A stretch of DNA of 63,637 nucleotides, counting the filler, from Aduncisulcus paluster (taxonomy: Eukaryota), in NCBI GenBank assembly GCA_024181965.1. It is 8 parts of 8 records of this genome, joined end to end, with 100 filler letters (N's around TTAATTAATTAA, not from the genome) between each part and the next. Parts side by side here need not be neighbours in the genome. Positions count along the whole stretch, not along the records: positions 50,638 to 58,345 come from BQXS01010885.1; 7 more parts are not named here. The stretch is one strand, 5' to 3'. A model generated the notes under the pieces. That model saw nothing but the letters and a program-made list of their open reading frames with translations. It was not told the DNA's origin and did no database searches. The position numbers and the translations under genes were made by a program. Of the stretch, positions 10,621-58,445 are shown piece by piece. Numbering within the stretch: position 1 is the stretch's first letter; the number at the start of each line of letters is the position of its first letter.

Positions 10621-10720
10621 NNNNNNNNNNNNNNNNNNNNNNNNNNNNNNNNNNNNNNNNNNNNTTAATTAATTAANNNNNNNNNNNNNNNNNNNNNNNN
10701 NNNNNNNNNNNNNNNNNNNN
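10621..10720. other. Artificial contig linker
   Basis: N-run / TTAATTAATTAA (stops in six frames) / N-run, 100 bp. Confidence 0.99.
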
Positions 10721-18420: not shown

Positions 18421-18520
18421 NNNNNNNNNNNNNNNNNNNNNNNNNNNNNNNNNNNNNNNNNNNNTTAATTAATTAANNNNNNNNNNNNNNNNNNNNNNNN
18501 NNNNNNNNNNNNNNNNNNNN
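18421..18520. other. Artificial contig linker
   Basis: N/TTAATTAATTAA/N. Confidence 0.99.
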
Positions 18521-20290
18521 CATCTTGCATGTCACTTGACGAATACTCTCATGCATGGTGCACTTGCGAAGACCATTGTTCATGTCAGTATCATGGAGAT
18601 GACCATCACTCAAAGCATCATCACACCCATCATGCAAAGCTCGGAACAGACTCACGAGCCCAAGCATCATCATGGCATTGTGAGAGAGTGTGCCATCATC
18701 AGACAATGCATTGTGCCACAGTGAACATGGAACGCTTGTCATCAATGTGGAACTCATCGTGTCCACATCACAACTCACAGAAACATACTCACTCAAAGGA
18801 GACAGAACACTCACACGACGGGAAACAGTGTCAGCATGATTCTTTGTCACACTTGCACACAGCTCTGGCGGTTGTCCAGACACACGAGCAGAGACACATG
18901 ACAGCTCACGTTGCAGAGATCGAATGTCACGGGAAAGAATCAATCGTTTCGTCTCAGACGTTTGTTGATCCATCGACAGTTCCCTTGACAAAGAGTCCAT
19001 CTGGGCTTGTTTCAACTCAAGCTGCTTCTCAAACTCTTCGTTCTCTTGAATTCGAAGTGTCTTCTCGGCCTCAAGCTCAGCCTTTGTGTGCGATAATTCT
19101 TTCTTTGTTGCATCAAGATCATCTCTCAAAGCACTCAGAGTCTGTTTGGTGGAAGATATGAAATCACTCAACAATTCATTGATCTCAACTCGTCGCTCTT
19201 CTTTCACTTCTGCAGCTCGTCTGGCTTCACCTTCAACACGAAGTTTCTCAATCTTGACACGTTTCTCTTCAGCTTTCAGCTTCTCCATTCCCTTATCGAT
19301 AACAAATTGAATGGCATGTAGTTGTACTTTTGATTGTTTGTAATCTTCATCTAGAGAACGAACTTCAAGATAACATGCTTTAATTGGAACAGATATTTCA
19401 ACAATGAACTTTTGCCAGAAGTAATTATCTGGAGGAATATGAAAATTTATAAAATACTCTTTGATGGAAACTATTTCATCAACAGTTGCATAATAATAGA
19501 AATGCATTTTGAACCTCTTTATACCACTTGGAACATTCTGACTACTTATATAGAAATGACTGATAATATGGGGTTCTTTAAAAGGAATTCGTAGATTAAC
19601 ATCTCCCAGATCAGGAGTTAATGACAAACTTGTCTTGCCCTGAAAGAACTTCACTAATTTGCTCTGGCTATACCCTTCTGTCGATTCAACTCGAGAGGTG
19701 TCAATATCACATATGAAAGAATCATCCATACAAGGAAATATGTATTTGGTTGAAGAATCAAGTGAATGTAACATATGCTCTTTCATAACACATTTCTCAG
19801 CTATTCTAGAGAACATTTCCTCAACACCTTCTCCAGTTTTTGCACTTGTCTCGAAATACAAAATGTTCTTTTCAGTTATAAATGCCTCAGCAGTCGATTT
19901 ATCAACTTTTCCAGATTCAACAGCATCCATTTTGTTTCCAACAAATGCTACGATTGAATTTTTCATTACCTCCTTCATAACAAGTTCAAATTGTTTCTTT
20001 GAGTATTCAAAAGAATCATGTGAATCTGTCAAATCAAACACAAGAATTACAACAGAAGCATCCATACAAATCATAGGAGTCAACGACCAAAACATCTCCT
20101 GACCAGCAGTATCCCAAATTTCAAGTTTTGCAGGTCGACCGTGAATATTCACCGTTTTTGAGCAAAAAGCCAAGCCAATAGTTGTTCTCATCGTAGATTC
20201 ATCATAGTAATTCTTGATATACCGTCGAATCAAACTTGTTTTGCCCCCACCAGGCCCTCCTATAAAAACTATTTTGTAATGGTCATCCAT
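18521..20290 (-). CDS. Rab-family GTPase fused to an unknown beta-rich domain and coiled coil, 3'-partial
   Basis: G-boxes GGPGGGKT, TIG, WDTAGQE, GNKMD and ETSAK in aa 1-170, followed by >400 aa of extension that is open to the contig end. Confidence 0.9.
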
Positions 20291-20873
20291 TTTTAATCGT
20301 TAAGAATTCTTAATATCTTTAGATACAGCAAAAAGTGACAAACTCCTCTAACTCAGCCAACGACATCTATTTAGGAATAAATTCCTCCTGAAAAAATATT
20401 ATATCTTAATGATATGTATTTTTATTATTTTTGAAGTATACAAAATCCATTATATGACGAAGACAAAACAGATCGAGCCAAAATCATCCTTTTGGCTTCC
20501 ATATTGGGGATATAGAACTTATAATATGGTATTATAAATATTTTATTGTTATATCTTTGCTTTCTTTATATGTTGCAGCTGTATTTCTCTACACCACTGA
20601 TGGATCGCATATAAAATCCAAAATTCACCACAACAGAAAGTTGGAAAAGATATCATGTGTTTTGCCGTATAATATTGAGTCAGAACAAAACATTTGGTAA
20701 TTTAAAGGCCGTGTAATTTTTTTGAATCTCAATGAAGTGATTATAGATAAGCTTGTGATAACAATAGACTTACCTCTCTACAGAACAAATTGTATTTTAA
20801 ACTTTATGATGTTTATTATTTATATTGTTTCCTTGATATTACTTAAACAACTAATTTAAGAAAGAAATATTTA

Positions 20874-23800: not shown

Positions 23801-26800
23801 CACATACGATCGAACAAGCACATACTTGGACATTGAAGTTATTATTATTCCCTTGAGCATCATGGAATGCATTCTGGTGCTCTGGTGAGGAGATGGCAGG
23901 AAGGATTATTCGGTTTCCACAATGCTTACATGTCGTCCACGCCCGTTTCCTGGCAACCCTTGATGGTCCCATAGTTTTGTGACCCCTCATAAGGACAGAC
24001 ACAGAGCCTCTCCCACTTACACACAGACTTCTGAGTGGAATGAGAGAGTAAATGAGCGACAAAGCAGTCACATCGAATGGAGAAAAGAGAGAGAGGGCCA
24101 ATTGAGAGAGAGAAGGGGATAGAAGCTTGAGGGAAGGGGAGAGGAGAGATGTGATAAGAATAAGAGAAAGAGAAGACTCGTCGGACAAAGGGGGGTTTGA
24201 TTCGATGGCAGAATGACAGGAATGACAAGAATCACATGAAGGCGATGTTAGATCAACCATGCCAAGACCACTATCACATTGTGAGACAATCTCAGAGCCA
24301 GGGAGGAAGGGAATCACACCACATCCTGGAGGAGCTTCATGGGATGTCAGAGTTATACTCTTTCTTTCTCCCTCTGCTTCTTGTTCTCTAAGCCACAAAA
24401 TATCGCCACGTTTCTGCTCCACAGCTTGCTCAGCCTCAATATCACCCAGAATGGTATCATTCACCGGTTGGGACCTGCCGATCACTGGTTTACCCATCCC
24501 ATCGGTGCCACCTCCAACCATTGTTTCAGCAGTCCCCTCCTTCCATCTATGACTACCTCTCTTCTTCTGACAACCAGTTGCTACATTTCTCTCTTCAATA
24601 AGTCTTTTCATAAGGCTAAACCCATCAGCGGCTTCATCAGAGGCATCACTTTCAAGACCTCCACGTGATGATGTGTGCAAAATGCCATCCTGTGCAAGCG
24701 AAATGTCCACATCACCATCGTCAATCTCACCGCCCATCTTCCCTCGTCCACACATGGAGCACACAGCCACCGCAAGATGAAGGGCATAGTTCACTCCAAC
24801 ACCGTTAAATAAGAGAGATGAGAGTGCCAACGAAGGGGGTATAGAGCCAAGCGACAGCTTAGAACTGGGAAGAGAAGATTCAGAGGAAGAAGAGGAAGAA
24901 GAAGAGGAAGAAGAAGAGGAAAGGAGACTCTTTCTAGCAATGGGAGCCTGTTCTTTCTTCCCGTTAGTCTTTGCTTGCTCATTCAATACAGATTCCTCAT
25001 TCCACCCCAGGACAGTGTCCAAAAGAATGGTCTTCACAGCATCTTGGCCCTCGGATGTCTTCCTATTCTTCAGTGTATTCACACTGTTTCNNNNNNNNNN
25101 NNNNNNNNNNAGCCACCGCAAGATGAAGGGCATAGTTCACTCCAACACCGTTAAATAAGAGAGATGAGAGTGCCAACGAAGGGGGTATAGAGCCAAGCGA
25201 CAGCTTAGAACTGGGAAGAGAAGATTCAGAGGAAGAAGAGGAAGAAGAAGAGGAAGAAGAAGAGGAAAGGAGACTCTTTCTAGCAATGGGAGCCTGTTCT
25301 TTCTTCCCGTTAGTCTTTGCTTGCTCATTCAATACAGATTCCTCATTCCACCCCAGGACAGTGTCCAAAAGAATGGTCTTCACAGCATCTTGGCCCTCGG
25401 ATGTCTTCCTATTCTTCAGTGTATTCACACTGTTTCCAATATCCAGCATGTCTCCAAAGGAAGAGAAGGAAGAAGCACCCATGAGTGATGAAAACATCAC
25501 CTCTGAGGATGTCTGTTGGGGGCCAGCCGTTCCGGAGGAAGAAGCAGAAGTTCCTGGTTGAGAATAGAGTTGAGCTGTCGATATCTTGTGGCTTCCTTGA
25601 CCTCCTTGATGTTCACGAGAGTGTCTTGGGGAAGAGGTTGAAGAGCCATCTTGCCCATACAAAGGTGAAGGAGTCCTTGAAGAAGGTGGGGACAGACATG
25701 AACACACACCACGCATCGGTGGCAGTGATAACAAGAGATAATCATCATTCATGCACATCACATAGGCTTCAGAGGAGTGCCGAGTCGATGGATACATTAG
25801 AATCTGACTCGTGGCAGGAGAAATACGGCCAGACGAGGAGCCAGAGATCCTATCTGCGGCTCCGTGATGCCCCCATTGGTTAGAAGTTCCTTCAGAAGGA
25901 GGATCAGCACCCCCGTATCCTGATGAATCGTCCCAAACAGCTACTCTGACTCCACTGCCGCGTTGAATGAAAGGGAGGTAGAAAGGGACAATCAGTTCCG
26001 GTACTTGTAGCGATGCCACGGATCCGTGTCCTCTTGTAGATAGGTAAGGAGTTGATGGAGCAGATATAATCAGAGATCCACTCTCGCTATTGATCAATCC
26101 AGGCAATGGAGAAGATATCCCAGCACTACTTGTTGCAGAAACATCCCATACTTGTGAAGAACCTGGCAAGTTGCTTGAGAAAGAGTGAGAGAAAGATTGT
26201 GACCTTGAATGTGGCTGATGTTGGGAGGAGAAAGAACGAGCGGAACAATGATAGGAGCCACGAGAGAATGTTTTGCCCCACATGGCAACATGATGAGCTG
26301 CTGGAGAGAAAGAGTACGTTAGATCATCAACCAACAATCCATTTTCGCTGAGAATGGAAGTGGATGACCGAGCAAAGGGTCTTGACGAGAGAAGGGAAAA
26401 TGGAGAACGAAGAGAAGATACCAGGGACTTTGTGAAAGGGAAGGAGAATCTGCCTATATTTGTCGAACGAGTAGTCGTAGTCGTATCAGATACTTGGTAC
26501 TTCTTGGATATTTGATATTGGGATGAAGTTGTGTTTGTGCCACATAGCTTCCTAATAAGTTCAAGATGTTCCTCTGAAGATTCATCGTCTTCGGACAGTC
26601 CATCGAGTGTAATATCATTCATATCCTCATCAAGCATCAGGGGTGTTGAAGAATTCAGAGATCGCGGGACAGATGAGATATCATCGCCTGTATATCCACC
26701 AACAATACCCTCGGAATCCCTGGCGCTAGCAAATGGGAATAGGGTGGAAGGGATGATAATTCCATGTGAGGTTGATTTGTAATGTTGGAAGAAGGTATGA

Positions 26801-28763: not shown

Positions 28764-28863
28764 NNNNNNNNNNNNNNNNNNNNNNNNNNNNNNNNNNNNN
28801 NNNNNNNTTAATTAATTAANNNNNNNNNNNNNNNNNNNNNNNNNNNNNNNNNNNNNNNNNNNN
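28764..28863. other. Artificial contig linker
   Basis: N/TTAATTAATTAA/N. Confidence 0.99.
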
Positions 28864-35789: not shown

Positions 35790-35889
35790 NNNNNNNNNNN
35801 NNNNNNNNNNNNNNNNNNNNNNNNNNNNNNNNNTTAATTAATTAANNNNNNNNNNNNNNNNNNNNNNNNNNNNNNNNNNNNNNNNNNNN
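35790..35889. other. Artificial contig linker
   Basis: N/TTAATTAATTAA/N. Confidence 0.99.
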
Positions 35890-41908: not shown

Positions 41909-42008
41909 NNNNNNNNNNNNNNNNNNNNNNNNNNNNNNNNNNNNNNNNNNNNTTAATTAATTAANNNNNNNNNNNNNNNNNNNNNNNNNNNNNNNNNNNN
42001 NNNNNNNN
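41909..42008. other. Artificial contig linker
   Basis: N/TTAATTAATTAA/N. Confidence 0.99.
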
Positions 42009-50537: not shown

Positions 50538-50637
50538 NNNNNNNNNNNNNNNNNNNNNNNNNNNNNNNNNNNNNNNNNNNNTTAATTAATTAANNNNNNN
50601 NNNNNNNNNNNNNNNNNNNNNNNNNNNNNNNNNNNNN
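50538..50637. other. Artificial contig linker
   Basis: N/TTAATTAATTAA/N. Confidence 0.99.
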
Positions 50638-52603
50638 CCACGCAAAACAAATGCATGTGATTGCTCAGATGCGGAAAGAAGAGAGGAAACAGCGTCAGGA
50701 AGAAGAGCATCGTGAAAAGGGAACTGATGAAGAAGCCGAAGAGAATATTGAAGCCGAGGGGGCTGACGGTGAGAAGGAATTATCTGAGTTGGGGGACGAA
50801 GTCTCAATCGATGAGGATATCGTTGATGAGTTTGAAGCTCAGTTCGATGCTGCTTTGAAGGCTGTGAACAAAGATAAAGAAAGCATTCAGAGAGAGGAAG
50901 AACTTGTTCATGAAAAGCTCGAGAAGGTGAGCAACCTTGAAAAGAAACACGAAGAGGAAGAAAAGGCTTTGGATATGTCCTTGGAAAAAGAGAAGGAGAA
51001 GGAAATGGTTAAGCATGAACAAGAAATGGAAATGATGAAAAATCGTGCTTCTGAGGAGCTTGACAAAAAACGAGAAGAAGCTCTGGCTCATGCAAACAAC
51101 GCAAAGGAAAGACAGCGTCTGGAGGAAGAATTTAGAGAGAAAAAGGAGAAAATGAGCAATTTGTTGGGAACAGAAAGTGAAAGGCAGAAGAAAGCTCTTG
51201 AGGAACGTCTTGCAAAGCGTCGTCAGCGTTTGATGGATCGTCAGAAGCGAGGCCAACAAGAGGAACAGCGAAGAACCGTCCAAGCCATCGATCGGGAGGC
51301 TCAGAAAGTGAATGATGATGCCACTCGTAAAGCCGAAGAAGAGGCTATCAAACGTACTTTGGAGACTCTTGGTGATACAAACGCTGCTGAAATCATCGAA
51401 TATACTTTGCAGAAGCGTCATTTGAAGGAAACCAAGGATCTTATGAACAGTCAGGAAGAGGAAAGGAACTCTATCCTGACCACCTTGAAGGATACCCTCA
51501 CGGATGAGTATGAAGAGAAGAAGGACGCCCTCATGAGTGAGCAAAAGGCTGAGATGGCTGATCTACTCAGTCACACCAGTGTTGAGGCCCAAGATGAGTC
51601 TACTGGTGTTATCAATACAGCAGCTCGTGATAAATTGGCTAAACAACATGAAGAAGCCCTTGCTGAGCTTCAAAATGATTTCGAGAGTGCTCTTCGCGAT
51701 GAAGTCAGGAGTCAATCCATCCAGCTTGATGCGGCCTTTGTTAAGGCTCGTCTTGTGCAACGCCGAAGACACGACAATGAGTTTATTGTAGCTCTGAAGG
51801 ATCTGTTCCCAGATATTCTGAATGATGTGGGATCTGGCGAACAACAACAAGATGACGATGAGGCTGAGGGAATTCTTGATGATGCCGCTTTGAAATTGAA
51901 GGACCTCAAATCCAAGAGAGAGGCCATTGAGGCCGAAGAAAGGAAGAGGATTGAAGATGAGATTGCTGCTTATCAGAGCGAGCTTCAAGCCAAACAAGAG
52001 CGGGCGTTGAAAGAAGCTGAGGCCTCAAAACAAGCCCTAAAGGCTCAGCAACAGCAGTTTATCCAAGAAAGAGTGGCGCAACATCAGGCTGCTCTCCGTG
52101 AGCTTGGGGAGAATGCTCAAGAACAGACAATGATGCTTATGGAGAAAGAAAAAGAAGTTCGTGATTTATTGGAGAAACGTCTTGAAACGGAGAGAAAACG
52201 TCAGTTGCGTCAGCTCAAAACAATATCTCAGAAGCGTCAGATGATTCTGAAGCAAATGATGCGTAGACGCGCGAAGAAGAAGAGAGAGGATGCAAAGAAG
52301 AAAGAAGACAGCACGAAGAAGAAGGAAGAAACTGTTGTAAGTTCCTCGGGTGAAGAGGATCCTTTCTCAATCGAAGGAAGCGAAGGTGATGATATTTTTA
52401 CTCGTCGTGGAAGTGAATCAAGCGGGGAATTTGGTGACTCTGGTCTCGATTCTCTCTCCGAAACTGGAAAGAGGCCTCAGGCACCTGTTTTGGACATTGA
52501 TTTGGATGACCTTCTGAAAGAACTTAATGATTCCAAACTCACTCAGCAAACAATCAAGGTTCGCGATTTGGTGGAAAAGATGATTGCGTCTACTTCAAAA
52601 TAA
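50638..52603 (+). CDS. Long E/K/R/Q-rich coiled-coil protein, 5'-partial
   Basis: ORF >650 aa, open from the contig edge, with heptad-rich charged helices. Confidence 0.85.
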
Positions 52604-52773
52604 TCAAATAATTTAAACATTTATATTTTTAAACATTGCATTCATATTAAAATAAATAGTATTTCGTAATATCACTGTTTGGACAGATGAAGAACTACCA
52701 GGATTGAGATATGGAACAAAAATCAGAATAATGATCAATAATGGTATATTTAAAAACAAAAATGAATAAAATA

Positions 52774-53476
52774 TCATGGAATTGAAATATGATTGAAAGT
52801 TTTCCCAGAGAGAAGACTTAATTTTGATACGAGAAAATCATGGATAATTTTTTTGATATTTCTTGGGAAATGCCGATAAATAGGAATATCAAGGGAATAA
52901 TCAAATTGTTTAATGGTGCATTCCTGAATCGTAAGTGATAAAATCCGTGATTTAATCGCATCAAGAAATGAAATATCTGAAGCTTCATTCTTTGATGAAC
53001 CACCAAAACTGACACTAAATTTTATAAAAACGTTGATATTTAGGCGTTTTAAATCAAATATATGAGTAGATCTACTTCTAAATCCACATGATTGTGTTGG
53101 AAATTGATGAATGGGAATTAGTTGCTTCTTCGTCTTAATTTTGCCTTTAAACTGAAGGATATCGCTCGATTGAATCGATAAAGAAGTTCCAATGGTTCCA
53201 CTTTTCCCAATTTTTGATAATTCAGCAATCTCAATTGCCGGAGGCTATGTCAAGAAAACAGAAGATAAGAGAAGACGAATAAATGGTAATCAAATCCAAC
53301 AAAATAAAACATACATCAAATCCAACAATCAATTTAGTTGTTTGTCCAGAAAATTCCATATCCAACCATTCAGAACAACGAACGCTTATTAAATTGTAAA
53401 GATAGTCAATGGCTTTCGATAAAGCTTCTTCAATGAATTTTTTTGCTTCTAATGACCAAGTTAAAGAAAGAGACAT
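52774..53476 (-). CDS. 210-aa SMP/TULIP-like protein resembling ERMES Mdm34(Mmm2)/Mdm12; complement(join(52774..53244,53315..53476))
   Basis: Only exon 1 appears in the ORF track. A phase-0 70-nt intron GTATGT...CATAG yields MSLSLTWSLEAKKFIEEALSKA...TKLIVGFD|PPAIEIAELSKIGKSGTIGTSLSIQSSDILQFKGKIK...IKKIIHDFLVSKLSLLSGKTFNHISIP*. Confidence 0.6.
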
Positions 53477-53874
53477 CCTTTCTCTATTCTTTCATTCCAC
53501 AAAAAAACGTTTGACTCTATATCTTTGTGTGGTACTGTTTCATTGGACATTTTGATGTAAAATATTTAATAAAAAGCTTATTTAATTTACATTTTATTTT
53601 AAATGTTATATGAAAGAGAGTTATTTCCCCTTGAAATAAAAAATTGAAAAATAACCTGGTTTTTCGGACTGTATCATTCATATAGTACTTTTGTCTCCGA
53701 TTTATTATTTATTGTAAGTATTAATTTACCTTTAAAATTTTATTTCAATGGTTTTTTCTCGTGATTGACAATTTTGATTGTTTTCAATCTTATTCTCGTA
53801 ATAATGAACAAATAATCCCATTGGGGTGTATTTAATTGCATATATATTGCAAAATTAAAAGATAATAGTTAAAA

Positions 53875-54624
53875 ATGGACGAAAGAATGGAAGATCTAGA
53901 ACTTAAGGGAATTGATCAGTGGCAACGAATGGATGGAGTTCCCGAAACAACACAATTTGAAGATGCTCATCGCCAAATGACTGGAAAATTGACTAGAGAA
54001 CAAGAGGTTCGTGAACAACATAAACTCGAAGAAAATGTTGAAAAAATGATTATAGACGCTTATAAAGAGAAAGAAATGGATGATAAGGATTTTGAAGAAC
54101 TTGAGGAACTTGAAGATGAGTTAGATGAAGATTTTCTCGCATATTATCGGGAAAAATTAGAAGCTGAAATGAAGGAGAAACTATCTGCTGAGAAATTTGG
54201 TGAGATATATGAAATCACTGCTAAACAATATAAAGATGTTGTTTCTGATCCCTCAATTACTATTATTATCCATCTTTCCCAAGATTACCTTCCTGATTGT
54301 AAAGTATTGCACCATCGTTTCAAACAATTGGCCAAGAAATTCAAAGAACATAAATTCTGTAGAATTCGTGCCACCGATGCAATTCATGGATATCCCGATA
54401 GGTTTTGTCCGACTGTGATCGTATACAAGGGAGGTGAGTGTTTCAAACAATTGGTTGGAATGGAGACCCTCGGTGGTCATAGCTTGACGGCTGAACAATT
54501 GGAATGGACCCTTGCAGAGCAGGAAGTCCTCACAACTGAGCTTGAAGAGAATCCTTTCGATGGTGGGGCAAGAGATGAGTTTGCTCAAAGCGTCAGAAGA
54601 TTTATGGAGGATCAAATGGAATAA
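53875..54624 (+). CDS. PDCL3: Phosducin-like protein 2 (CCT co-chaperone)
   Basis: KFGEIYEI, IIIHL, LAKKF..KFCRI, YPDRFCPTVIVYKGG, LEW.LAE..VL.TELEENP. Confidence 0.88.
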   Translation: MDERMEDLELKGIDQWQRMDGVPETTQFEDAHRQMTGKLTREQEVREQHKLEENVEKMIIDAYKEKEMDDKDFEELEELEDELDEDFLAYYREKLEAEMKEKLSAEKFGEIYEITAKQYKDVVSDPSITIIIHLSQDYLPDCKVLHHRFKQLAKKFKEHKFCRIRATDAIHGYPDRFCPTVIVYKGGECFKQLVGMETLGGHSLTAEQLEWTLAEQEVLTTELEENPFDGGARDEFAQSVRRFMEDQME

Positions 54625-54747
54625 ACCACATTTATTAAGATAAATTAATAATTATTAATTAATATTATTAGAAATATAGTAGAAAAGATGGACCATATTC
54701 CACCGAACTTGTGTTGTGGAGAGGAATATGATATCAGTGATATCAGT

Positions 54748-55575
54748 TTATAATATGAAATTATTTTTCCAACTTTTAACTTGTTTTCTTACTTTAGATG
54801 CTAAAGATGATAATATCATTGAGTTTCTAATCTTTAAAGATTCGTGGAAATGAGTTAACGAGAATGGTGGAGGAAACCGTGCCATATGGAAAGAACAATA
54901 TAATTGAGATCCTTTTTTCTTTTTTAAAGATTTTTTATCATCTTCTTTGTCCATTATTTGCTGAAATTCATTGCTAAATGATACACTAATCCCTTGTTTT
55001 TCCCCTGAAGTCCTACTGATTTCTCTCACAACAAAGGAAGATATCGAGAAAAGCAAAGAATTGGGAAATGATAGGGACATTGTTATGGTGTAATTATCAT
55101 CAGAATGTGGAATAAAATTGATAGAATCGGAAAAACGGTAATGTAAACTAAAACTTGTCTTATCTCGAAGAATTTTTTGACAAGATGCAAGAATAGCCCA
55201 GTCAGTTAAATTAAATGCAAGAGAGCATATTCTTTCACTGATTTTTGGGACACTTTCCGAAGCAATCTTTCCAAACCTAAGACAAAATTGAAAAGGAAAC
55301 TTTGGGGGGTTAAAATACACGTTTTTATGCCATTCATCTTCTAATTTTTTTTTAACACCAAGCAAAATCATATCATCCCAGAATAATGGAGGGAAGGATA
55401 CAGACAAAATGAAGAATGGAGCATAATCCACTTTCTTACACTCAATTCGGTAATCAACATTATTATAATCTGCCAAAAATAGTTCTTCGCTGAAATTTTT
55501 ATCTGGAATTCTTAACATAAATAAATTTCGAGAAGGATATGAAAGAAAATTAGTGTATGTAAAAAAAAACTCCAT
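54748..55575 (-). CDS. ARPC2: Divergent Arp2/3 complex subunit 2 (p34-Arc)
   Basis: Collinear motifs ELFLADYNNVDYRI (~EVTFADFDGVLYHI), LHYRFSDSINF...TITMSLSF (~IHYRDDETMYV...TVVFSTVF), FVVREI, VSFS, YCSF. Confidence 0.65.
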   Translation of the reverse strand: MEFFFTYTNFLSYPSRNLFMLRIPDKNFSEELFLADYNNVDYRIECKKVDYAPFFILSVSFPPLFWDDMILLGVKKKLEDEWHKNVYFNPPKFPFQFCLRFGKIASESVPKISERICSLAFNLTDWAILASCQKILRDKTSFSLHYRFSDSINFIPHSDDNYTITMSLSFPNSLLFSISSFVVREISRTSGEKQGISVSFSNEFQQIMDKEDDKKSLKKKKGSQLYCSFHMARFPPPFSLTHFHESLKIRNSMILSSLASKVRKQVKSWKNNFIL

Positions 55576-55811
55576 ATTTCAATGACATCATGGATGATAA
55601 CGTACGAATATATATTTACAAAGGTTTTTTTTAAAAGAATGTTTTCTTTTGAGGTATATGGCATTTCGAAAAGACACAAAATTCCGATTTTCAATACATT
55701 CGGTATTTGTCGGCTAGCCGATATGAAGCACTGATTCATAAAACATATTTTATTAAAGGTAGAATTTCAAATTTTGTTATATATTAAAGATGAATTAAGA
55801 TGTTTGCTATT

Positions 55812-57594
55812 TCACAACTTTTTTAAGGCGATTTGCTGAAGTCTCAGATTCTTCACAGTCGTAATGGATTTAGTTTTATCAGTAACTTGAACTATACTTC
55901 TTGCCTGTGGAGTAATTTTATAATATTGAAATTTGAATCGAGGAATTCCACTATCGCGGCGAACAACAAAGTACAAATCGGCAACGGTCTGAGAAGGTTC
56001 GAAGTTGTATACTTTTGGAGGAATATCTTTCTCAAAGACCACTTTAACCCTGATCGATCCCTTTGTTCCTGCCCCTGAGGAGGATTGAGTTGGTGGAACA
56101 GATGATGTGGATGGTTTTGAACTTGGGATAGAATGAGATGATACTTGGGAGGAAGAAGTTGTACCCGATGACCGGACTGTGCTACTTTTCCCGGAGAAAG
56201 TGGCTGGAGCCTTGTGTTTATGGCCTCCTTTCATACCAACACCAGCGGTGCCACCTTCAACAAAATCACTGCGCAACATCTCTCTTCTGTCAGACATTTG
56301 AAGGGTGAGTTTTACACGGCCTGAAGCAAGGTCCTCGAAGGTCAAATCCATGTAAGTCCCGTATTTATCGAGGATTTTCCGAGAGATGGATGATGAACTC
56401 ATACAATCAAGGAATTCCGCATCTTCAGGATCGTCATACGAGAAAAAGGCCTCACTGTTGTTAATTGTGAAGCCATCCTTGTACATCTCAAGGGAAACTT
56501 CCTTCACAGAGGGCTCAACGGGCTTAGGAGAGATCTTTGGTTCAAAATGTTTTGGTTGAGGCTTTGTGTGTTTTTCAGGTTCATCTTCTTTAGCAGCTGG
56601 ACGACGGATAGATCTGCCAGACCCAGAGAAAAAGGATTTCTTCTCCTTTGGTGCCTCATGGGGATTATCGGTCTCTTGTCTAGCCTGTGAAAACAGATCG
56701 TCGACAGTTCCACGGGCACCTTGACGGTCGTGGCCTTCCATCATAACTCCTGTGGACTCACTGTTGCTTGTGTAATAAGTTTGTCTCTTTCCATGATCTG
56801 GATCACCGGATTGGGGACATCCACCACAACACTCATCATCCTCACCTCGAATATCAGAGAGAGAACACACTTTGCTAGACTTCTTAGATTTGGAATAGAT
56901 AGGACTTCTTCCACCGGTGGAATCACTAGTGTCAGANNNNNNNNNNNNNNNNNNNNGGTTGAGGCTTTGTGTGTTTTTCAGGTTCATCTTCTTTAGCAGC
57001 TGGACGACGGATAGATCTGCCAGACCCAGAGAAAAAGGATTTCTTCTCCTTTGGTGCCTCATGGGGATTATCGGTCTCTTGTCTAGCCTGTGAAAACAGA
57101 TCGTCGACAGTTCCACGGGCACCTTGACGGTCGTGGCCTTCCATCATAACTCCTGTGGACTCACTGTTGCTTGTGTAATAAGTTTGTCTCTTTCCATGAT
57201 CTGGATCACCGGATTGGGGACATCCACCACAACACTCATCATCCTCACCTCGAATATCAGAGAGAGAACACACTTTGCTAGACTTCTTAGATTTGGAATA
57301 GATAGGACTTCTTCCACCCGTGGAATCACTAGTGTCAGATCCTAAATGGCCAATACGACTGGGTTTTGAGGATGATCCTCCAGGCCAACCACCTGATCCA
57401 CGTTTGGGGGTTTCTCTCTTCTGTCCACCAGTTGAGTGACTTGGGGCAGGGTAAGGAACGTCTTTTAATGATTGTTGTTCCAAGAAAAATTCAACAGCAC
57501 GGGTTAAATCACCTCCAGCCGACCTCAATAAGGCTGAACACTCAGTTGTTCCCATCCCAGTAATTTCACATAATTGCTTAATATCACTGTCCAT
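55812..57594 (-). CDS. NSFL1C: p97/Cdc48 cofactor p47 (UBA-SEP-UBX), 459 aa after collapsing the gap duplication
   Basis: UBA-like IKQLCEITG...LTRAVEFFLE, SEP LEMYKDGFTIN..SYDDPEDAEFL, FSG boxes, C-terminal UBX. join(55812..56553,56957..57594) = 1380 nt in frame. Confidence 0.85.
56554..57339. repeat. 383-bp direct duplication flanking a 20-N gap (assembly overlap, one SNP)
   Basis: 56554-56936 matches 56957-57339, except CCACCGGTGG vs CCACCCGTGG. Confidence 0.92.
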
Positions 57595-57880
57595 TATAGT
57601 TGTTATTCAAAATTAAACCTATGTTGGTAAATAAAAATTGATTTGATGTTTCAAAACGGAGGATCTCGGAACAAACTACAAAAGAGGATTCCTGTCAATA
57701 CATAAAGATGATATATTATTGAATCATGTGAAATAAAATTTATTCTAATTTTTTATTTTCTTTATATCACTTCCATACGGATGATAGAAATCGATGAACT
57801 GAAATGATCTCATCGGCAGGATCAAGTTTGTAAAAACTCTGTTTTACTCCAGATAATGACATGAATGTAATGTATATTTC

Positions 57881-58345
57881 TTATTCGATTGCTGAAATTG
57901 TAACATTCATAGATTTTACATCATCTCCATCGATTTTCATGACCTCGTAGTTATCTCCAACATGACCGCCAGTGATTGTAATATCCAAATCATCTCCAGA
58001 AACTCCCGCAAATACACGTTCTGTTCTGGTCTTCTGATGGCCCGATGATTCAGTTTCAGACACAAGAACCGTCACAACATCTCCATCTTCAATTTTCTTT
58101 GCCTTCTTTCTTGGCTTTTTGTCTTCATTTATGTTGTGGCAATAGCGAACAAATACATTCTCTCCAGCTCTCCTCCATTCGTCGCCAAGAACTAGGGCGC
58201 CTTCTGAGACAGCGATGGCATTAACATCCCTTCCAGCCCCTATCTTTCGCTTCTGCTTTTCTTGCTCAACACGACGAACAACTTTCCGTTGCTTCTCAAT
58301 TTGCCTACGTTGGAGACGAGCTTTTTCTCTCGTTTTACGTTCGAT
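57881..58345 (-). CDS. Hypothetical protein, 5'-partial
   Basis: 155 codons open from the contig edge (IERKTREKARLQRRQ...) to TAA 57881. Confidence 0.7.
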   Translation of the reverse strand: MERKTREKARLQRRQIEKQRKVVRRVEQEKQKRKIGAGRDVNAIAVSEGALVLGDEWRRAGENVFVRYCHNINEDKKPRKKAKKIEDGDVVTVLVSETESSGHQKTRTERVFAGVSGDDLDITITGGHVGDNYEVMKIDGDDVKSMNVTISAIE

Positions 58346-58445
58346 NNNNNNNNNNNNNNNNNNNNNNNNNNNNNNNNNNNNNNNNNNNNTTAATTAATTA
58401 ANNNNNNNNNNNNNNNNNNNNNNNNNNNNNNNNNNNNNNNNNNNN
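58346..58445. other. Artificial contig linker
   Basis: N/TTAATTAATTAA/N. Confidence 0.99.

Follow-up and report, generated by a model that had tools for sequence, protein, structure and literature searches.

Two subunits of the endoplasmic reticulum (ER)-mitochondria encounter structure (ERMES) are among the described systems closest to the gene considered here. Within ERMES, Mmm2 (Mdm34) is adjacent to the outer mitochondrial membrane, and Mdm12 is the cytosolic middle subunit, which has been solved several times (5GYD, 5GYK, 5YK7, 5VKZ, and 5H5A). We analyzed a window of 63,637 nucleotides (nt) from Aduncisulcus paluster, that is, the whole stretch of DNA presented here, and within it an intron-split gene on the minus strand (53476-52774) whose product is a soluble protein of 210 residues. 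The best single account of this protein, to which we give a rough probability of 0.45, is that it is a very divergent homolog of the Mdm12/Mmm2 class and a putative remnant of ERMES.

The occurrence of ERMES parts in free-living fornicates is already published. According to Kucerova et al. 2023 (PMC10648710), Mmm1, Mmm2, and Mdm12 occur in Carpediemonas membranifera and Mmm2 alone occurs in Kipferlia bialata and Dysnectes brevis, and no ERMES part is reported there for Ergobibamus, retortamonads, or diplomonads. The fornicate Mmm2 examples given in the same study are KAG9397302.1 of C. membranifera, GIQ79569.1 of K. bialata, and an entry in EukProt for D. brevis. An earlier sequence-only reading of this locus had taken ERMES to be undetected in fornicates, subject to verification, a view which these subunits in Carpediemonas, Kipferlia, and Dysnectes overturn. 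A. paluster is a Carpediemonas-like fornicate and a free-living anaerobic flagellate. According to Fussy et al. 2022, it branches after Carpediemonas and before the Kipferlia/Dysnectes/diplomonad clade. Because Carpediemonas on one side and Kipferlia and Dysnectes on the other carry Mmm2, with A. paluster between them, the ancestors of A. paluster had at least Mmm2. Size is also informative. The Mmm2 of T. vaginalis has a 12-residue tail after its SMP domain (PMC10648710) and is thus little more than that domain, so that a length of 210 residues is what would be expected of Mmm2 or Mdm12 in a metamonad.

The gene lies on a draft contig that spans 50638-58345 (7708 nt) and is interrupted by 20 N at 56937-56956. 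By sequence reading and translation, it consists of exon 1 (53476-53315), an intron (53314-53245), and exon 2 (53244-52774), all on the minus strand. Exon 1 has 54 codons (MSLSLTWS...KLIVGFD, residues 1 to 54) and opens with an ATG at 53476-53474; an in-frame TGA at 53492-53494, six codons 5' of this ATG, closes the frame 5' of Met1. The spliceosomal intron of 70 nt (GTATGT...ACATAG) sits in phase 0 between codons 54 and 55, so that it falls between D54 and P55, within G-F-D/P-P-A-I-E-I. Exon 2 has 156 codons followed by TGA (52776-52774) and encodes residues 55 to 210 (PPAIEIAELSKIG...NHISIP).

Splicing was examined over 50638-56936 with the Logan contigs of one public run (X1), whose kind, "RNA?", is a guess and not a record of RNA. 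One X1 contig of 724 nt is made up of 52619-53244 joined to 53315-53412, with exactly 70 nt skipped; the ends of the skipped segment, CT..AC on the plus strand, read GT..AG on the strand of the gene. The same spliced contig covers exon 2, a 3' untranslated stretch (52619-52773, minus strand), and, within exon 1, 53315-53412 only. Between the end of this contig and the ATG, 64 nt are uncovered, so that the support for the start codon comes from the reading frame and the deposited model, not from reads. The bin 53578-53787, which has no X1 contig cover, was not used as evidence. We consider it virtually certain that the gene is real and spliced.

In a script comparison, the joined translation of both exons was identical to a database protein of 210 amino acids (aa), here called P0003. 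With exon 2 as the query, a single database protein was returned, at 100% identity, namely "hypothetical protein ADUPG1_008191 [Aduncisulcus paluster]," and UniRef names the same entry "SMP-LTD domain-containing pro...," a label of its own which presumably derives from the PROSITE SMP-LTD profile. The Kyte-Doolittle hydropathy of P0003 reaches a maximum of 0.89 over a 19-residue window (residues 49 to 67), and its N terminus is not hydrophobic. As no 19-residue window exceeds this value, the protein has neither a membrane span nor a signal peptide, and it is a soluble, single-domain protein.

The gene structure, the intron position, and every string quoted in the sequence-only reading are thus present in the DNA, with translations that match P0003; the soluble 210-aa product is confirmed, as is splicing at the predicted junction, where 53244 is joined to 53315. 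The description of the gene as hidden, and as missed because its intron splits a diagnostic motif, was wrong. The draft genome was annotated by Braker2 with RNA-seq hints (11,743 introns; BUSCO completeness, 40.4%; Yuyama et al. 2023, PMC9933649), and the spliced model is deposited as ADUPG1_008191, an entry that UniRef labels as SMP-LTD domain-containing. The gene, its splicing, and the label are therefore already public. What is new is a candidate for A. paluster, a species scored blank where it was surveyed, and the evidence for that candidate is suggestive, not decisive.

The resemblance of P0003 to Mdm12 and Mdm34 begins at the first residue. Its N terminus, MSLSLTWS, compares with MSFDINWS in solved Mdm12 and with MAFNFNW[ST] in 113 of 115 fungal loci, and it follows the class motif M-[SA]-h-x-h-N-W-[ST], with the domain starting at residue 1, at every position except the Asn. 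A second motif of the class, a hairpin of the form h-x-h-G-x-x-P-[PA]-x-h-x-h-x-E-I near residues 45 to 60, is present as LIVGFDPPAIEIAEL at residues 49 to 63. Both hhalign and hmmsearch aligned LIVGFDPPAIEIAEL to LNLGxxPPELEILEIG of the fungal family, and hhalign placed TKLIVGFDPPAIEIAEL in register with ELNLGxxPPELEILEIG, within an alignment of P0003 residues 47 to 111 to profile positions 44 to 105. The likeness is thus colinear, and the claim that the N terminus and the G..PP.hEh motif recall Mdm12/Mdm34 has stood up: both motifs are seen on the fetched fungal loci and on solved Mdm12, which starts MSFDINWS and carries DLGKVGPAITLKEITD (phmmer output with the fungal protein L025).

The comparator family was obtained by scanning metagenome contigs with a degenerate pattern for a short N-terminal motif of fungal Mdm34. 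In 113 of the 115 fetched loci, the open reading frame (ORF) starts MAFNFNW[ST]PL and carries LNLGxxPPxLEILEIGDLAEDRFRG; the other two, L083 and L028, were rejected as chance pattern matches. Of these ORFs, 31 span 535 to 644 aa, and from this length and the motif the family is probably Mdm34 itself. An alignment of 31 of the 113 ORFs (A1) was built from 22 sequences cut to 200 aa and nine hand-picked, more divergent N-terminal pieces. The 22 were what remained of 37 ORFs of at least 230 aa after filtering at 93% identity (23 ORFs) and the removal of L005, which carries an unspliced in-frame insertion. With residues 1 to 200 of L025 as the query, phmmer aligned solved Mdm12 over positions 1 to 144 of both sequences (E = 0.0016). 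AlphaFold2 (AF2) run on A1 gave a pLDDT (predicted local distance difference test) of 55.0, and a Foldseek search with the resulting model returned 17 matches at E of ≤0.001; among the matches listed, all were Mdm12 chains. A second tier consisted of Der p 7/Der f 7, JHBP, SPLUNC1, Mmm1 (E = 0.014), and BPI. The phmmer and Foldseek results thus mark the comparator as a genuine SMP family, and among solved proteins Mdm12 is its closest relative. The fungal genes also show a common feature of their own. Many of them (L036, L038, L041, L042, L086, L094, and others of L002 to L116) share an intron site after ...[KR]VQ, at about codons 86 to 93, and ORFs at this site run into intron sequence and stop after about 90 to 115 codons.

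A different result came from a global alignment anchored at the N terminus, in keeping with the trait that defines Mdm12/Mdm34, namely a domain beginning at Met1. In it, residues 1 to 75 of P0003 were compared with 31 fungal Mdm34-type N termini. The real score had a mean of 24.9 and a maximum of 35. Of 2000 shuffles with Met1 held fixed, none reached the real mean and one reached the maximum. Natural 75-mers starting with Met scored far lower (mean, -14.1; standard deviation, 8.1; top score, 8.9), and none of 785 reached the real score; the same was true of 180 Met-started segments of the window and of 88 first-Met segments of the loci. The anchored score was reached by 40 of 558 inner-Met segments, which were pieces of the Mdm34 ORFs themselves and were removed afterwards, and in the cleaned natural controls the count was 0 of 594. 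Across five scoring schemes, four were matched by 0 of 785 natural segments and 0 of 1000 shuffles and PAM250 was matched by 2 of 785 and 1 of 1000, with z values of 3.2 to 5.1. Each half of the region adds to the signal: residues 1 to 45 gave a z of 3.99 and residues 11 to 75 a z of 2.69. We regard this alignment as real but moderate support for an N-terminal third of the Mdm12/Mdm34 type.

A number of results weigh against placing P0003 in the Mdm12/Mmm2 class, and they concern the comparison itself, the published survey, the homology searches, and the predicted fold. Where the N-terminal motif has a conserved Asn, P0003 has Thr. The hhalign comparison of P0003 with the fungal alignment was not significant (Prob, 0.64%; E = 0.09; score, 17.0), and when P0003 was shuffled 268 times, the real score was reached in 23 cases; an unrelated neighboring protein compared with the same family gave an E of 0.53. 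By hmmsearch, P0003 scored 1.4 bits and ranked 188 of 3001, which is likewise not significant. In the anchored test, residues 76 to 210 scored barely above shuffles (z = 1.69), 50 of 1000 of which reached the same level, and the test as a whole was chosen post hoc, after the likeness had been noticed, uses comparators that are Pezizomycotina-like only (63 to 94% identical to the first row), and cannot separate Mdm34 from Mdm12. In Kucerova et al. 2023 (PMC10648710), the row for A. paluster, marked "Draft genome," is blank for Mmm1, Mmm2, Mdm12, Mdm10, Porin2, and Nvj2, and the hidden Markov model (HMM) searches of that study did not pick up P0003.

The homology searches point the same way. Pfam gave no match above threshold, whether the query was one of the exons or complete P0003, the only row being RIMC1 at 12.5 bits against a cutoff of 25. 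A phmmer search of all PDB chains returned no match at E of ≤10 for whole P0003 or for exon 1. Against 1.84 billion representatives at E of ≤0.001, phmmer found two proteins only, P0003 itself and P0004, which is spurious. Word-index searches returned P0003 alone, as 1 of 289 candidates with full-length P0003 and 1 of 12 with residues 1 to 80 (both at E of ≤10) and as 1 of 31 for the exon 2 query. With regard to structure, AF2 run on P0003 alone, with no alignment, produced an unusable model (pLDDT, 35.5; predicted template modeling score [pTM], 0.28), and no SMP cluster was found among the nearest neighbors of P0003 in the ESM Atlas, where all scores were below 0.9.

Some related searches complete this picture. 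Exon 2 had one chance match among the PDB chains by phmmer (E = 1.5), and 597 pattern matches to P0003 in metagenome contigs yielded none that was confirmed. By sequence, then, P0003 is an orphan. The rejected P0004 is a bacterial Listeria-Bacteroides repeat protein of 1056 aa with 12 Flg_new repeats, and its E value of 7.5e-09 comes only from a score summed over six weak repeat matches to residues ~96 to 162 of P0003; the case illustrates how repeat proteins inflate whole-sequence E values. The Pfam result needs to be read with care, because the Pfam SMP family was not matched in four of four full-length fungal Mdm34-type ORFs either (L025, L005, L030, and L014; Pfam-A 2025 copy). The silence of Pfam on P0003 is therefore uninformative on Mdm34 membership, and Pfam-based ERMES surveys would miss an Mdm34-type subunit because Pfam-A has no model that recognizes its SMP domain.

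We think that P0003 probably adopts an SMP/TULIP-type fold, most plausibly as a single lipid-binding domain. The ESM Atlas model of P0003 has a pLDDT of 0.50 and a pTM of 0.47, and by language-model features its nearest named clusters are Grp7_allergen (0.89/0.88), Grp7+JHBP (0.87), LBP_BPI_CETP (0.85), Fibroin_P25 (0.85), and JHBP (0.84). Of the 10 best rows that carry a family, 8 belong to the family or clan of the top row; two odd rows were a viral capsid fragment and an unnamed actinobacterial cluster. When those families were skipped, the next rows were OrfX-like (0.82/0.81, the family being carried by only 18 to 19% of the cluster members in those rows), DUF4403 (0.80), an unnamed row, and DUF3617. 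Structural alignment of the Atlas model, whose pLDDT of 0.50 should be kept in mind, gave CETP a TM score of 0.58 by query over 168 residues, DUF4403 0.50, and DUF1439/YceB 0.46/0.52, and the model also aligned to lipocalin-like clusters at 0.39 to 0.40. Apart from the capsid, DUF3617, and lipocalin rows, the named families are TULIP domains according to Wong & Levine 2017 and Levine 2019. These results are one source of evidence and serve as leads only, with every score below the lead line of 0.9.

It is possible, although on balance unlikely, that P0003 is a TULIP/SMP-like lipid-binding protein that is not derived from ERMES, such as a cytosolic lipid shuttle or a lineage-specific TULIP, with its N-terminal likeness arising only from the helix-hairpin layout that all SMP-like domains have in common. 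Of the alternatives, we rate this one highest. The nearest Atlas neighbors are non-SMP TULIP families, with no SMP cluster among them, residues 76 to 210 carry no significant Mdm34 likeness, and no ERMES partner is reported for A. paluster in the published survey. Moreover, TULIP domains share no conserved motifs according to Kopec et al. 2010, so that a family assignment made from motifs is weak. On the other hand, Der p 7, JHBP, and SPLUNC1 also form the second tier for the true Mdm34-type model, such that the second-tier families of that model are those returned by the Atlas for P0003. Secreted TULIPs need a signal peptide, which P0003 does not have, and its sequence has no match to the secreted TULIP families PF01273, PF06585, and PF16984 in Pfam. 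The non-ERMES SMP proteins carry a membrane anchor together with C2, PH, or PDZ domains, all absent from P0003, which at 210 residues is too short for them. Finally, the domain of P0003 begins at Met1 with M-S-h-x-h-x-W-S, as in Mdm12/Mdm34, and none of the 785 natural controls matched its anchored alignment.

Alternatively, P0003 might be a fast-evolving, lineage-specific orphan without a TULIP fold, in which case the label, the Atlas neighbors, and the N-terminal likeness would reflect chance or low-level features. We rate this as slightly less likely again. The absence of a homolog in any sequence search that was run is consistent with it, as are the low confidence of the AF2 model (pLDDT, 35.5) and of the Atlas model (0.50), the chance-level outcome of the local profile tests, and the Atlas scores below 0.9, given that shuffled proteins reach ≥0.8 a third of the time by the Atlas tool's own figures. 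Against it, three kinds of evidence lead to one superfamily, namely the SMP-LTD label, the language-model features with their model, and the anchored N-terminal alignment, of which the label and the alignment may share signal. The size, the solubility, and the order of helix, strands, and helices also fit a single TULIP domain, the secondary structure being taken from the low-confidence AF2 model. A search for structural relatives of that AF2 model with Foldseek gave chance rows (best E, 2.1; none at ≤0.001). That the frame is not a real coding gene at all, being a noncoding transcript or a wrong model, is highly improbable: there is no homolog for a test of purifying selection, and the spliced X1 contig stops short of the start codon, but exact removal of the 70-nt GT..AG segment restores one frame of 210 codons from an ATG with an in-frame stop before it to a TGA, and annotation guided by RNA-seq led to the deposition of the same model.

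Returning to a divergent Mdm12/Mmm2-class homolog as the favored account, our proposal for the fold, lipid binding, location, and partners of P0003 is conditional throughout. P0003 would belong to the TULIP superfamily as a highly divergent protein of the SMP type, with a domain that begins at Met1 in the manner of Mdm12 and Mmm2 (Mdm34). A hydrophobic channel for the acyl chains of phospholipids would be enclosed by a helix at the N terminus, a long, twisted beta-sheet, and helices at the C terminus. Since P0003 has no membrane anchor of its own, it would have to be held at the membrane by partners. A beta-barrel in the outer membrane of the mitochondrion-related organelle (MRO) may serve as one such partner, a possibility raised by the report of Mmm2 only in Kipferlia and Dysnectes (Kucerova et al. 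2023). Placed at the MRO outer membrane, P0003 would help phospholipids to pass from the ER into the organelle. We are doubtful, on present evidence, that it is a working ER-MRO tether.

A broader idea is equally tentative. A. paluster may keep one ERMES-derived SMP subunit of the Mmm2/Mdm12 type without a detectable Mmm1, Mdm12 partner, or Mdm10. Together with the reports of Mmm2 alone in Kipferlia and Dysnectes, this could mean that an "Mmm2-only" condition is a stable and widespread state among free-living fornicates and not a step toward loss, with a lone soluble SMP protein at the MRO outer membrane being enough for lipid supply. In yeast, one tethered SMP subunit can reportedly replace the ERMES complex, a result ascribed to Covill-Cooke et al. 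2026 (PMC13151913).

As to partner subunits, no member of the MMM1, porin, or Miro families was found among 33 long frames scanned within the window. With a BUSCO completeness of only 40.4%, absence from the draft assembly would in any case be weak evidence. A frame of 593 codons on the minus strand (18521-20299) was considered as a Gem1/Miro candidate and rejected, as EF_assoc and a second GTPase domain are both missing from it; its N terminus holds a GTPase domain of the Ras/Rab type (PF00071; E = 2.3e-41), and no family was matched in its long tail. Literature searches turned up no report on SMP or ERMES proteins of A. paluster apart from the blank row in Kucerova et al. 2023.

The published picture (Kucerova et al. 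2023) is one of stepwise ERMES loss along the fornicate tree, with A. paluster scored as having nothing. If P0003 does belong to the Mmm2/Mdm12 class, one inferred independent loss would be removed, and standard HMM surveys would be seen to miss such divergent SMP proteins. It would also provide a concrete candidate for the lipid supply of hydrogenosome-like organelles in free-living fornicates. If it is not derived from ERMES, it would still be an unstudied cytosolic TULIP-like protein from a eukaryote that branches deeply. In both cases the advance is an incremental one, since neither the gene nor its SMP label is new to the databases.

The genomic setting can be described briefly. The window is an artificial chain of draft contigs with 17 runs of N. 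Each junction consists of 44 N, the linker TTAATTAATTAA, which has stops in all frames, and another 44 N, and the junctions lie at 10621-10720, 18421-18520, 28764-28863, 35790-35889, 41909-42008, 50538-50637, and 58346-58445. Further gaps of 20 N are found at 25091, 27336, and 56937. Genes that face each other across a junction are not neighbors in the genome. On the contig of the gene itself, the neighbors are a truncated Glu/Lys-rich ORF, a phosducin-like protein, an intron-bearing ORF without a family, and a UBA-SEP protein. The phosducin-like protein (53875-54624, plus strand) is of the thioredoxin-fold kind (PF02114; E = 3.4e-16). The next minus-strand gene downstream, at 54748-55606, has a frame of 275 codons with no Pfam family and a canonical intron of 95 nt (55605-55511, GTACGT...TTAAG), which is removed in an X1 contig of 3674 nt that joins 55510 to 55606. 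The protein with UBA and SEP domains (55815-57606, minus strand), of the p47/NSFL1C kind, is broken by the 20-N gap. A convergent upstream gene stops at 52603, with X1 contigs reaching 52587, and the contig of the SMP-like transcript has its 3' end at 52619, so that the two ends lie within ~30 nt of each other (52587-52619).

Taken together, these results allow P0003 to be set beside the known systems with which it may share a lipid-binding fold. Extended synaptotagmins/tricalbins, Nvj2/TEX2, PDZD8, and TMEM24 possibly have the same SMP-type fold, but they differ in having an N-terminal anchor and C2, PH, or PDZ domains, none of which P0003 has or is long enough to hold. The non-SMP TULIPs (group-7 mite allergens, Takeout/JHBP, BPI/CETP/PLUNC, YceB/DUF1439, DUF4403, and OrfX/P47) are nearest to P0003 by language-model features and by the Atlas model, and each is a single domain of ~200 residues with a helix, beta-meander, and helix layout, which P0003 probably shares. 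The eukaryotic ones, however, have a signal peptide and are secreted, and the arthropod families occur in arthropods only, whereas P0003 has neither a signal peptide nor a Pfam match. Both the anchored SMP proteins and the secreted TULIPs can be excluded because P0003 has no hydrophobic span, is only 210 residues long, and has no other Pfam domain.

Like P0003, Mdm12 is small and soluble, and it consists of an SMP domain only, as P0003 probably does; its MSFDINWS and DLGKVGPAITLKEITD compare with MSLSLTWS and VGFDPPAIEIAELS in P0003; by eye, in an unscored comparison, this likeness is as close as that of Mdm34. It differs in how readily it is reached by sequence, as P0003 and exon 1 have no PDB match at E of ≤10, whereas the fungal Mdm34-type domain reaches Mdm12 at an E of 0.0016. 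The comparison with Mmm2 (Mdm34) was made on fungal Mdm34-type sequences. Mmm2 (Mdm34) differs in that local profile similarity of P0003 to the fungal sequences is not significant, residues 76 to 210 are unalignable above chance, and the helix between the N terminus and the PP motif is ~6 to 12 residues longer in P0003 than in Mdm34. The points of likeness to Mmm2 (Mdm34) are an SMP-type domain that would run from Met1, the M-x-h-x-h-x-W-S N terminus, the lack of a membrane span, and the h-x-h-G-x-x-P-P-x-h-E-I-x-E-h motif near residue 50, placed in register by hhalign. The T. vaginalis protein is likewise little more than an SMP domain, and of the ERMES parts it is Mmm2 alone that other free-living fornicates have kept (Kucerova et al. 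2023).

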